From assembly GCA_951406725.2 (NCBI GenBank), contig OX597821.1, forward strand, positions 94,302,001-94,366,000: a stretch of DNA of 64,000 bases, written 5' to 3'. Origin of the DNA: Octopus vulgaris (lineage: Eukaryota). A program made the translations under genes and the position numbers. Under the pieces are notes generated by a model. That model was not told where the DNA came from. It worked only from the letters and a program-made list of their open reading frames with translations, and searched no databases. Below, piece by piece: positions 2,349-55,178 of this stretch. Each line of letters begins with the position of its first letter. Within the stretch, counting starts at the first letter, position 1.

Positions 2349-2455
2349 GCTCGAAACGTAAAAGACTTTCTCGCTTTCCCGAGCGTCAAACTAATACACC
2401 TGCTTGTTGTTCATACACCTATCTTCGTCTTTTGTTTTTCTGTAAATTTCAACTA
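2349..2455 (+). mobile_element. 5'-truncated PLE-type terminal-repeat fragment (3' half of a hammerhead) ending in (TA)n
   Basis: GCTCGAAACGTAAAAGACTTTCTC... matches the reverse complement of 5210-5315; runs directly into (TA)n. Confidence 0.65.
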
Positions 2456-2479
2456 TATATATATATATATATATATTAT

Positions 2480-2700
2480 ATCTTTTACTTGCTTCACTTA
2501 TTAGACTGTGGTCATATTGGGGCATCGCTTTGAAGAAATTTAGTCGAACGAATCAACCCCAGGACTTATTTAATAAAGCCTAGTACTTATTCCATCGGAC
2601 TTTTTTGCCGAACTGTTAAGTTACAGTGACGTAAGCACACGAAGACCAGTTGTCAAGTAGTGGTGGGGGACAGACAGACAGACACACAGACAGACAGACA
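2480..2700 (-). mobile_element. SINE family A, 3' portion
   Basis: Diverged match to the tail half of the full copies at 11577 and 19517. Confidence 0.75.
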
Positions 2701-3104
2701 CACAGACACACACACACACACACACACACACACACAGAGAAACACACACACACACACACGTACATACACGGATAGACTGGAAGATTGGATGGCTGGATGC
2801 ATGGATGGGAAGCAGCTTTTCTAAAGAACTTTATTATTTTCTTCTTATTTTCGTGTGAAATCTCTTGCAATTAACGAGCAACAATTTAGTTGCTAAATCC
2901 GTCACCATCGTTTCTACTCTCTTGAAGTGTCGACTTGACAATGTGAAGTGTTTTTGGTCGTGTGTAGCAAACTCTTTTACGGCAGGCAAATGTGATCTGT
3001 GTAAATTTGTGAAGAAATTGTATGGACTTTATTACCAAGTTTTGACATTTAATCATTATCAGTCTCATTTTCTTTTAATAATTTTTGTTTATGATGGGTG
3101 CATT

Positions 3105-3320
3105 TTGCGTGTGCTTATATTTTAGCATTGTATTGTGCTTCGTGCAAGGCTTTCATCATTGATCTTCTATGTTTGTGTGGTTCCCTATATTGTATGGATA
3201 TGTTATGCACGAACAATAAGCCTATCCGGTTCTATGTTGCCTGGCGCAGTGTGTTGCGATTGCTCCTTGTTGTAAGTGCGTGGTGAGGGTTCGACGGCGG
3301 GTTGTACTTGCACTGCGCCT
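3105..3320 (-). pseudogene. Decayed C-terminal half of a PLE GIY-YIG endonuclease
   Basis: RRRTLTTHLQQGAIATH followed after a frameshift by FVHNISIQYREPHKHRRSMMKALH resembles the PLE pattern RRLTxHxQQGxIxxH...NxxI...EALHI. Confidence 0.6.
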
Positions 3321-3510
3321 TTCTTTCTTTCCTTCTTTCTTTCTTTCTTTCTTTCCTTTTTTCTTTTCTTCTTTCTTTCGTTCTTTCTTTCCTTTTTTCT
3401 TTTTTCTTTCTTTCTTTCTTTCTTTCTTTCTTTCCTTTTTTCTTTTTTCTTTCTTTCGTTCTTTCTTTCCTTTTTCTTTTTTCTTTTCTTCTTTCTTTCT
3501 TTCTTTCTTT
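3320..3510. repeat. (CTTT)n-type microsatellite
   Basis: Directly visible; source of the spurious K/E/R-rich and F/S/L-rich ORFs. Confidence 0.95.
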
Positions 3511-52500: not shown

Positions 52501-52755
52501 ATGGGGATAAATCTAATAAATAACGTGATTTCTTGTATTGGTCGTCAGAGCTAATAAATACAACACGAGACGTGATATACGAAAGGCTATATATGAATTA
52601 GTCTGTTTGTCTGTCTGTCTTTCTTTCTTTTCCTCTCTCTCTCTCACTCTTTCTTGCTCTCTCTCTCTCTCTCTATCTATCTATCTATCTATCTATCTAT
52701 CTATCTATCTATCTATCTATCTATCTATCTATCTCTATATATATATATATATATA

Positions 52756-53665
52756 CCGGAGTAAACACATAATTGTGAAACAAGGTGGAAAAAAAAGAGT
52801 ACTCAAATACCAGTGGTAGAGTAATATGCTTTATTTAAAGCAGTAGAAAATTCTACAAAACCTGTTGCTCTGAGTATCACGTTGCCGTTGTGAAACTCAG
52901 AGTAACAGGTTTTGTAGAATTTTCTGCTGCTTTAAATAAGTCTTCGAAGACAGTCAAAATTTTGGATTTATGGAGGGTAAAACTTGGGAACAAAAGGAGA
53001 ACAGTGGAGACATACAAGGAAACCGAACGAAAACAAACATGGAGGGTCGTTAGACCAGAACGAGAGGAAAATAGTGAACGGTGTAAGAAGCATTTTTTGA
53101 AAAGAGTGAAGATAGAAGAGAGAGAGAGAGAGATAGGATACGTTCAGTCACATACACACAAACACACATATATATATATTCACATAAATAAATATATATA
53201 TATATATATATATTTATGTGAATATGTATATATATTTATGTGAATATATATATATATGTGTTTGTGTGTATGTGACTGAACGTATCCTATCTCTCTCTCT
53301 CTCTCTTCTATCTTCACTCTTTTCAAAAAATACTTCTTACACCGTTCACTATTTTCCTCTCGTTCTGGTCTAACGACCCTCCATGTTTGTTTTCGTTCGG
53401 TTTCCTTGTATGTCTCCACTGTTCTCCTTTTGTTCCCAAGTTTTACCCTCCATAAATCCAAAATTTTGACTGTCTTCGAAGACTCATATTGCCGTTCAAT
53501 GCTCGAAATGAGGAGTAGATAGACAACCGACAACTGATGAAGGGTCATTCTTTGTGTTACTTGTCCTGTTTTCCATCCATTTCACTCGTTGTTTGCGTAT
53601 TGAACTCATTTGTTTTCGCATTTCATGTTGTTTACTGTTGGTGACGTCCTGTACCCATATATGCA
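52756..53665. mobile_element. Rearranged PLE-type repeat containing two adjacent palindromes
   Basis: 52831-52880 pairs with 52890-52939; 52939 to about 53190 pairs with about 53233-53484; (TA)n on both outer flanks. Confidence 0.8.
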
Positions 53666-53729
53666 CGTGTATATATATATATATATATATATATATATAT
53701 ATATATATATATATATATATATATATATT

Positions 53730-54069
53730 ACGGAGATGTACTCGCATAGCAAGTAATTTGATCTGAGATCGTGTGCTGAAACGAAAACAATTGCAGCGTG
53801 GAAGGTGTTTATAAGTCATTTAAGAAACACACAAAAGTCGTTCGATTCACTTCAACATTTAAGTTTAATTTGTCAAAATATTTTCGTCGCTAAAATCCGC
53901 GACCTGTTCACTGACAAAGTCCGTGCAGCACGGACTTTGTCAGTGAACAGGTCGCGGATTTTAGCGACGAAAATATTTTGACAAATTAAACTTAAATGTT
54001 GAAGTGAATCGAACGGCTTTTGTGTGTTTCTTAAATGGCTTATAAACACCTTCCACGCTGCAATTGTTT
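53730..54069. mobile_element. TA-flanked fold-back element with 142-bp arms and a hammerhead motif on each strand
   Basis: 53785-53926 pairs with 53928-54069 (two mismatches, 1-nt centre); homologous to 27931-28030. Confidence 0.88.
53936..53985 (+). ncRNA. Minimal hammerhead motif, G3-C8 core variant (mirror copy at 53869-53918 on the minus strand)
   Basis: TTTGTCA-GTGAACA-G-GTCGC-GGATTTTA-GCGAC-GAAA-ATAT-TT-TGACAAA: 7-bp stem I, 5-bp stem II, palindromic stem III. Confidence 0.7.
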
Positions 54070-55178
54070 ATATATATATATATATATTAGAAGAAATGAG
54101 GTACTCAGAAAATCGGATGGTTTATATTTACAGATAATTATTTGTATATTACATTTTTTATATATCATATAACATAGATCCTGTATTAGCGCTCTCTCCC
54201 ATTCTAGTGGGGTTTTCAAATCAAACTAAGTTCCTGAGTGAAGAGTTTGGACCAATTTATAGTGGTATTGAGTTTGTAGAGGTGGGGAGGAATATAAGAC
54301 AGTACAAGAGGGTGATAGATGAGGAGAAAGTGAGAGAGAGAACATGTGTGTATGTGTGTGTGCGTGTGTGTGTGTTTTTGATGAGTGCTAAAGAAAAAGA
54401 GGGGAAGGGAGAGGGAAGAAGAAGAAAAGAATTTTTTTGGTCTGCTGGACAGAATATTGACTCCAAGGGGGTTCTAAGGTCTTGGGAAAAAAGAATTTCA
54501 GTTTTGACCATTTCACAGTGTCAATGAGTGTGTGGTGGCGGGGAGGTAGACCATAAATTATATTTCGTTTTATCATTGTGAGAGAGTGTGTGTGTGTTTA
54601 ATGAGGTATGGTCAAATGTTTTTTGGGTTTAGAGAAGAATTCTTTTTATGATTGTTTTGTGGAGGTGTGTGTGTGTGTGTGTGTGTGTGTGTGTGTGTGT
54701 GTGTGTATGTGTGTCTGAGTTTGGAGAAGGGAAGAGAGAAAAAAGGGAGGAAGGAGAAAAAATTGTGTTGATATTTATACCACTATATATAAATATATAC
54801 ATGCTTATACATAAAATATTAGAAAAAAAACACCTTTTATCGATTCAAAATGAACAATTAAATTACACCATCTAGAAAATTACATATAGAAAAGTTAATA
54901 TTAAAATGACAATAAAAAAGTAAAGATTAAGTAAATTACAAAAATAATATAATGAATATAACAGGTAATATATATATATATATATATATATATATATATA
55001 TATATATATATATATATATATATATATATATATATATATATATATATACACACAAATACTAAATGTTCTACTGTATTAAATTGTAAATTGAAAGATTTGT
55101 CCTTCAATGTATGATGAGTAAAATTTCATAAAGTCCATATTTGAAAAAGTATTCATTTCTGCTTAATTTTTAAGATTT

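Follow-up and report, generated by a model that had tools for sequence, protein, structure and literature searches.

Penelope-like elements (PLEs) of the Hydra clade carry a hammerhead ribozyme and lie nearly all in (TA)n tracts; one described member, Hydra-1_Obim, comes from Octopus bimaculoides (PMC8557442). In the tables of that paper, once two rows at 5′ positions are set aside, 23 of 24 families have the cut site 29–152 nt from the 3′ end, and stem III takes recurrent forms, among them ACTC-n-GAGT (five rows) and ACAG-nn-CTGT (four rows). Here we analyse a window of 64,000 nt from Octopus vulgaris (assembly GCA_951406725.2, contig OX597821.1, positions 94,302,001 to 94,366,000 of the forward strand), in which several families of short repeats carry minimal hammerheads, most of them close to (TA)n. 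On balance these repeats appear to be pseudo-long terminal repeat (pLTR) segments of several PLE families at (TA)n, likely copied in trans by a PLE reverse transcriptase (RT)-endonuclease encoded elsewhere; solo, non-autonomous units are probably the form in which the abundant families spread.

The class as such is already known: lone and opposite-strand minimal hammerheads, (TA)n-inserting PLEs, solo pLTRs and internal priming are all in print. Minimal hammerheads are reported in thousands of copies per metazoan genome, mostly single and with some opposite-strand pairs; monomers did not cleave, dimers cleaved weakly, and a U3-A8 core variant was recorded (PMC4209133). The Penelope pLTRs of Adineta vaga measure 193–218 bp and have 5′ palindromes, fold-back junctions and solo copies (PMC3846280). 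Work on Poseidon PAc of Anolis carolinensis showed that priming is internal, that nicks fall in AT-rich DNA, that protein assists cleavage and that insertion in vitro can proceed without cleavage (PMC11167929). Non-LTR retrozymes are likewise short non-coding hammerhead units, often monomers; by one proposal they derive from pLTRs, lack autonomy and depend on PLEs for movement. They are defined by tandem arrays and circular RNA, whereas the window holds no array (PMC7229834; bioRxiv 10.64898/2026.07.22.740005). The repeat annotation of O. vulgaris includes 31 recently active Penelope-like families, and ribozymes are unmentioned in the available part of that paper (PMC13282606).

Hammerhead motifs and the repeat families that carry them

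The strict descriptor used to scan the window asked for stems I and II of at least 4 bp each, a 7-nt core carrying G5, A6 and A9 with positions 3 and 8 in a Watson-Crick pair, GAAA, a palindromic stem III and UH; 30 local dinucleotide shuffles of the window served as background. Six motifs were found (cores at 5713+, 24910−, 28008−, 44658−, 53911− and 53943+), compared with none in each of the 30 shuffles. A relaxed descriptor returned seven motifs against a shuffle mean of 0.5. A looser scan returned eight matches against a mean of 0.69 (maximum 3 in 100 shuffles); it gains the motif at 49377(+) and two decayed ones at 15109(−) and 1993(−), and loses those at 5713 and 5329. The hammerhead motifs are thus real and well above chance. 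Chance matches in AT-rich, repetitive DNA might be suspected, as the minimal hammerhead is short and the relaxed scan gives 0–3 matches per shuffle; the outcome of the strict scan, together with family-level variants that respect the fold, reduces this to a negligible probability. For the strict motifs the chance reading is refuted; the decayed motifs I, G and H (see below) are less secure.

The initial annotation had placed eight full motifs in the window, and all eight are there, its coordinates being the lower (plus-strand) bound of stem I. Six of the eight are strict; 5298 fails at A6, where it has U instead, and 49377, with a stem II mismatch (GATC/GCTC), is visible only in the looser scan. 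The motifs belong to families A (5298, 2349), B (44628, 49377), C (27965, 53869, 53936), D (5709), E (24867) and F (52860). Homology between A and B reduces these six to five unrelated groups (A/B, C, D, E and F), and the claim of at least five short repeat families with a minimal type I hammerhead stands. The copies and motifs are as follows.

5208..5386, minus strand: family A copy of ~180 nt; boundaries approximate, from read depth and loose ends
5298–5333, minus strand: family A hammerhead; stem I CTTT/AAAG, core CTGTGGA (U6), an extra A, stem II GAGC/GCTC, stem III ACGT
2349..2453, plus strand: family A copy, 5′-truncated inside stem II (3′ half of the hammerhead); joins (TA)11 directly
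5588..5822, plus strand: family D copy of ~235 nt with a 5′ palindrome; joins (TA)26; start at 5588–5592 from reads
5709–5751, plus strand: family D hammerhead; canonical core CTGATGA, stem III AATCGATT, predicted extended helix I
24740..24914, minus strand: family E candidate, ends uncertain; runs into a mixed CATA/TA microsatellite; single in the window
24867–24914, minus strand: family E hammerhead; core CCGAAGA, 7-bp stem II with one mismatch, stem III ACAGCTGT
27932..28030, minus strand: family C copy of ~100 nt between two TA tracts; hammerhead 27965–28015, G3-C8 core GTGAACA
44527..44735, minus strand: family B copy of 209 nt, TA on both sides; hammerhead 44628–44662, stem I GTTT/AAAC, core CAGACGA
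49306..49508, plus strand: family B copy; hammerhead 49377–49411, core CCGACGA, stem II mismatch
52756..52935, no single strand: family F fold-back pair centred at 52885; two head-to-head 3′ halves, each with GAA, stem III ACTCAGAGT, A and ACAGG; the longer left arm joins (TA)10
53729..54068, no single strand: family C head-to-head pair centred at 53927; hammerheads 53869–53918 (minus) and 53936–53985 (plus), both G3-C8
14987–15177 (minus) and 15569–15759 (plus): family K, an old inverted pair, 73% alike; overlooked in the initial annotation
1955..1998, minus strand: decayed hammerhead-like motif I; core CTGAAGA, stem III ACTCAGAGT as in family F; likewise overlooked

One core is thus surrounded by unrelated stems and by six different stem III palindromes (ACGT, AATATT, AATCGATT, ACAGCTGT, ACTCAGAGT with an odd centre, and ATGCATGCAT), a palindromic stem III having itself been required by the descriptor. 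Stem I of the homologous families A and B differs by one compensatory change. When two copies were co-folded, the stem III dimer was never the lowest-energy state (5 of 5 motifs), a result that is uninformative for such short helices. The half motif at 2349 proved to be a true 3′ half, and this copy is 86% alike to the family A copy at 5.3 kb. The motif near 52860, described as split, is a partial hammerhead as proposed, but it is really a fold-back duplication of a 3′ half; the CUGANGA half was found in neither arm. In family K, CTGAAGA is kept in both arms and the 10-nt stem III ATGCATGCAT is intact in one, while stem II has decayed. Motif I has no TA tract nearby and is one match of the scan with a shuffle mean of 0.69. 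A scan of the window against Rfam showed no hammerhead family among the best 150 of 494 matches, all of which lie below the gathering score and are mostly microRNA models on simple repeats.

Junctions with (TA)n and the origin of the units

The distances from the cleavage site to the next (TA)4 are 100, 93, 105, 101, 40, 147, 90, 75, 209 and 110 nt; family E is the outlier at 209 nt, and the other nine of the ten sites lie at 40–147 nt. A TA tract 30–140 nt downstream had been claimed for most cases, and this is so for eight of the ten sites, two lying beyond that range (147 and 209 nt). With the family C pair counted as one locus, and with a range of 30–170 nt that was picked after the data were seen, a downstream tract is present at 8 of 9 independent loci, as against 13.9% of the unmasked window positions (P 1.1e-6); the predicted enrichment of TA junctions over background is therefore found in the window. 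Upstream tracts were seen at 3 of 9 loci (P 0.12). Direct joins to (TA)n occur in the 2349 copy of family A and in families B, C, D and F.

The repeats, 100–235 nt long and non-coding, are best read as behaving like the ends of Hydra-clade PLEs, a clade that no open reading frame (ORF) attests here, and as inserted at (TA)n by PLE-type target-primed reverse transcription. Taken alone, a PLE origin is very probable. The hammerhead lies near the 3′ end in (TA)n, unpaired nucleotides flank stem II, and there are inverted 5′-truncated copies with an optional longer tail on one arm, all as in the described Hydra-clade elements (PMC8557442). Inverted truncated copies with unequal 3′ tails are represented in the window by the C, F and K pairs; both arms of the C pair end at TA, and its left arm is ~57 nt longer. 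Stem III of F and I is identical to that of Penelope-3_HM, and that of E resembles the ACAG..CTGT group. In contrast to the Hydra clade, no ORF was found attached to the window families, none of which matches the stem III of Hydra-1_oBim; and while all 34 cores listed for the clade begin with CTGA, the corresponding letters are CTGT in A, CCGA or CAGA in B, GTGA in C and CCGA in E. The short ACGT stem III of A and B is found in other metazoan PLEs.

Agreement with the metazoan minimal hammerheads is close as well: a type I fold, a helix I of 4–5 bp, an extra nucleotide between 9 and 10.1, a palindromic 15.2–16.2, a U-rich upstream flank and many families per genome. The core exchanges differ, the paper reporting a U3-A8 swap and the window families showing G3-C8 and U6 (PMC4209133). 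The Adineta vaga pLTRs share units of ~200 bp, head-to-head junctions and cis-acting pLTRs mobilised in trans. They are, however, rare and partly ascribed to recombination or deletion (PMC3846280), whereas families A and D have a summed contig depth 3 to 5 orders above the single-locus level, and the copies in the window lie in (TA)n. In Poseidon PAc reverse transcription starts ~85–92 nt past the cut site (111–118 minus 26), similar to the spacing seen here. Unlike in the window families, the PAc ORF starts inside the hammerhead, and the PAc priming site is not homologous to its target (PMC11167929).

Defined units are supported by the two dispersed family B copies, which are identical in 195 of 209 aligned columns and share the same 5′ and 3′ junctions, although their flanks are unrelated (~40%). 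The two family C loci begin 15–20 nt before stem I and end 40, 90 and 147 nt past the cut site. Shared 5′ ends suggest non-autonomous units of ~200 nt, a feature that may be new; a fixed unit is firm only for B (two copies) and suggestive for A, C and D. For the abundant families, we place non-autonomous spread slightly above even.

Reads of four runs (X1, X15, X22 and X23) were placed on the stretch 5193–5830, which covers the copies of families A and D; the variants quoted are those among 40 of 73 rows. Of the words sampled from a mostly unique stretch, run X1 contains 82%. Its summed contig depth is 1.4–4.7 million over family A and 50,000–165,000 over family D, compared with 25–66 for single long contigs and 81 for the low bin 5413–5434; as summed contig depth is not copy number, only the order of magnitude is meaningful, and to this order A is a very abundant and D an abundant repeat. 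In 143 contigs of X1 (agreement 0.56) and 30 of X15 (0.64), the loose ends at the 3′ end of family A (5208) give a (TA)n consensus. At the 5′ end of the family the consensus in X15 runs into TA ~25 nt past 5361 (26 contigs, agreement only 0.5). Within the A hammerhead, the variants common in X1 and X15 affect N7 (5325) and H17 (5302), both free positions. The sole listed row inside the D hammerhead, 5711 T>C at 90% of X1 depth, turns a U-G wobble of stem I into C-G. The longest family D pieces begin at 5588–5600, and two single X1 contigs return head to tail, from 5816 or 5830 back to 5589 or 5591. Of the 12.9 million reads in each of X22 and X23, only 9 and 64 could be placed, and not one of these reached 99%; both runs probably come from another genome, and hence were excluded from the abundance figures. 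On 5256–5386, X23 shows an A-like unit of ~134 nt head to tail, without a TA spacer, satellite- or retrozyme-like in appearance; it starts at the same motif as the 5′ extension of family A and has two uncompensated stem II changes among the rows listed.

A possible course of events, inferred in part from the PAc biochemistry (PMC11167929), would begin when a PLE protein binds the RNA 3′ of the hammerhead. The protein would nick AT-rich or (TA)n DNA with its GIY-YIG domain, and reverse transcription would start internally, 40–150 nt past the cleavage site, alternative start sites giving the three different 3′ ends of family C. The cDNA would then pass through an uncleaved hammerhead and either stop at a preferred 5′ point and join the upstream TA, or be truncated as in the 2349 copy; alternatively, it may fold back on a hairpin to yield a head-to-head pair, as in C, F and K. 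Cleavage would need dimerization through the stem III palindrome, or the help of a protein. The copies occur singly or with a partner on the other strand, which closes the route of dimer cleavage in cis; the ribozymes at 53869 and 53936, for example, lie on opposite strands and so cannot pair as a dimer on one transcript. Most genomic copies would thus cut poorly, and insertion probably does not depend on cutting.

The protein partner was not encountered in the window. A decayed PLE RT and GIY-YIG domain, which the initial annotation had taken as support, could not be recovered by Pfam, motif, homology or read-through searches. Among 300 ORFs of at least 45 aa, only a Gypsy integrase and a mariner helix-turn-helix exceeded the curated Pfam cut-offs, with no PLE domain, and motif scans of the window for a PLE protein gave nothing. 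The region 10280–10760, PLE-like by eye, had no match among 1.84 billion proteins (one frame), nor by read-through Pfam, phmmer or word search; the ORF at 12774–13064 had no homologues, and read-through Pfam of 61.8–64 kb, 39.8–41.3 kb and 55.8–56.8 kb revealed no PLE. YIG-like matches at 30293 and 57315 were rejected, as they lie inside a dispersed repeat. The RT that is present, at 39.9–40.9 kb on the minus strand (relic 39895–40901, N-terminal part of the RT), has 184 homologues; among 63 listed ones of at least 950 aa, the 'R/K-PD' pattern of the restriction-like endonuclease (RLE) occurs in 51, a CCHC knuckle in 28 and a GIY-YIG-like motif in none. By these motifs the RT is assigned to an RLE-class non-LTR element, that is, a long interspersed nuclear element (LINE). 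We take it to be of the R2/Hero type. A further relic of an RLE-class non-LTR retrotransposon, weakly matching the C-terminal part, was noted at 1259–1597(+). Pfam also missed the clear RT at 39.9–40.9 kb, which points to low sensitivity on decayed sequence; given such weak searches, a decayed PLE in the window is better called not shown than absent. The proposal of PLE derivatives inserted at (TA)n accordingly keeps its main support, the close match to the Hydra-clade layout, and loses the RT and GIY-YIG evidence; it is weakened as well because these copies have no route to dimer cleavage in cis, and the system is, moreover, already published.

The same copies could all be dead-end products, 5′-truncated or abortive, of full-length autonomous PLEs (Hydra- or Neptune-like), with the shared 5′ ends marking a hairpin, TA microhomology or the transcript start. 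We regard this as a serious contender, although not as the probable one. This is how Cervera and De la Pena interpret the majority of lone minimal hammerheads (PMC4209133), and Craig et al. report heavy 5′ truncation, inverted 5′ copies and optional tails (PMC8557442); in the window, the fold-back pairs, the variable 3′ ends of C and the halves at 2349 and 52860 (family F), which are cut inside the ribozyme, are of this kind, and the depth of family D is about half in its 5′ third. Debris is harder to reconcile with the identical junctions of the dispersed B copies, with the 5′ extension of A that enters TA in X15 and has the same start in the X23 tandem unit, and with the family copies in the window, none of which carries ORF sequence. 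The cut halves and the reduced D depth also weigh against pLTR segments spreading as solo units, and other points do so too. A depth drop at a 5′ end marks only the end of that copy, and loose ends were read to 30 letters; the family D joints from 5668 to 5588 may reflect an internal sub-repeat; and run X15, whose RNA nature is a guess, was not counted as evidence of expression. No PLE ORF is joined to any family within the window, and pattern scans found no relatives (A and B in metagenome, viral and prokaryote collections; C in metagenomes). Five family-specific words are absent from the supplement of Craig et al., where line breaks could hide a match.

Improbable, in our judgement, is a derivation from non-LTR retrozymes, in which the transcripts of tandem arrays would cleave themselves as dimers, form circles and return to the genome from circular RNA as dispersed monomers. 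A unit size of 180–235 nt, the head-to-tail joints of D in two X1 contigs, its predicted extended helix I and the 134-nt tandem unit of X23 would fit, and retrozyme families of mostly monomers exist (bioRxiv 10.64898/2026.07.22.740005). Yet a tandem array of any family is absent from the window, retrozymes have been described with canonical hammerheads whereas minimal ones are assigned to PLEs (PMC7229834), the U6 core of family A is predicted to cut poorly, and the X23 unit comes from those 64 reads, with its uncompensated stem II changes. Still less likely, and indeed hardly credible, is that these are repeats similar to short interspersed nuclear elements (SINE-like) moved by LINE enzymes, or that the TA tracts grew secondarily from tails, the hammerhead being incidental. 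LINE relics are present, and the SINE-like halves S1/S2 have a TA tract within 100 nt of one end in 13 of 17 copies (a third SINE-like family in 1 of 9); the junction is therefore not specific to hammerhead elements, and the TA association, although far above chance, is not unique to them, which also counts against the preferred PLE origin. However, five unrelated groups have the hammerhead-to-TA spacing of Hydra-clade PLEs, fold-back pairs with unequal arms are a PLE signature, and a tRNA gene call over the window gave none.

Other repeats in the window

The window is animal-type DNA with a G+C content of 36%. Simple repeats account for 15,745 of its 64,000 bases, (TA)6 or longer tracts number ~100, and relics of Gypsy, mariner and LINE elements are present together with several SINE-like families. 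The Gypsy-type integrase relic lies at 6639–7615(−), and the mariner relic (27079–27900) adjoins the family C copy at 27932..28030. The segments at 55.8–56.6 kb(+) and ~19.0–19.2 kb(−) may be CR1-type LINE ends, which they resemble. SINE-like families are found, e.g., at 5041–5192; S1 and S2 (e.g. 19535–19902 and 32184–32577) form a linked pair that flanks a microsatellite and frequently sits at TA tracts.

Between the F pair and the C pair, the region 52936–53669 forms a nest of insertions. It contains an inverted repeat whose arms (52936–53116 and 53307–53487, 99% alike) enclose a TA tract; after it comes a degenerate 3′ half of hammerhead-like appearance, itself ending at TA. Candidate G (53487–53669), for which no register was found, was left out of the count. 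Repeat family H occurs at 43502–43661(−), 43845–43991 and 44176–44459, with two inverted copies that have a common 5′ start; candidate H (44194+, 43644−) has GAA-ACTAGT-T without a hammerhead core or stem II, and was likewise not counted.

Core variants and the role of the hammerhead

Two of the ribozyme cores are unusual. In family C the core is G3...C8 in all three copies, and stems I and II are formed in the lowest-energy predicted fold of the family C strand. An engineered C3G/G8C double mutant of Poseidon PAc partly restores cleavage (PMC11167929). No natural G3-C8 core was reported in the literature searched, among the 34 listed Hydra-clade cores or in one supplement file of PMC4209133, although such a core could sit in further supplements or in Lunse et al. 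(RNA Biol 14:1499); U6 was likewise not seen in the available text or the one supplement file of PMC4209133. The natural G3-C8 swap in family C is possibly new, and so, possibly, is the U6 core in family A. No variant row for core position 6 of family A (5326) occurs among the 40 of 73 rows, so that U6 is likely the family-wide state. Since a natural A6C variant cuts at less than 0.1 per min (PMC3088659), poor cleavage is predicted for family A.

In families A and B, a conserved segment 15–35 nt past the cleavage site is able to pair with stem II and GAAA. The competing downstream helix appears in the predicted folds of B1, B2 and A2, but not in those of A1 or a shorter B1 fragment. The segment may be new as well, and it could represent either a helix that inhibits the ribozyme or the trace of an ancient fold-back.

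In vitro, PLE insertion did not need hammerhead cleavage (PMC11167929). That family C has kept a 3-8 pair through two changes speaks for selection on catalysis, while family A suggests that a very high copy number can be reached without catalysis; natural high-copy families, one with a compensated core (G3-C8) and one whose core is probably crippled (U6), would be ready-made test cases for the role of the PLE hammerhead. A further, tentative idea, which we think rather doubtful, is that families A–D are self-propagating 'PLE-SINEs': solo-pLTR retroposons of ~200 nt that run on PLE enzymes, home to (TA)n, reach thousands to tens of thousands of copies and carry an allelic ribozyme series. If true, the series would comprise a canonical core (D), a compensated G3-C8 core that keeps the catalytic pair (C), and, in the most abundant family (A/B), U6 with a competing helix that would silence cleavage; it would let one test directly whether PLE transposition gains from hammerhead cleavage, suffers from it or is indifferent to it. 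The main value of the finding lies in annotation: in such genomes, a sizeable share of the short 'unknown' repeats beside TA microsatellites would be PLE ends.

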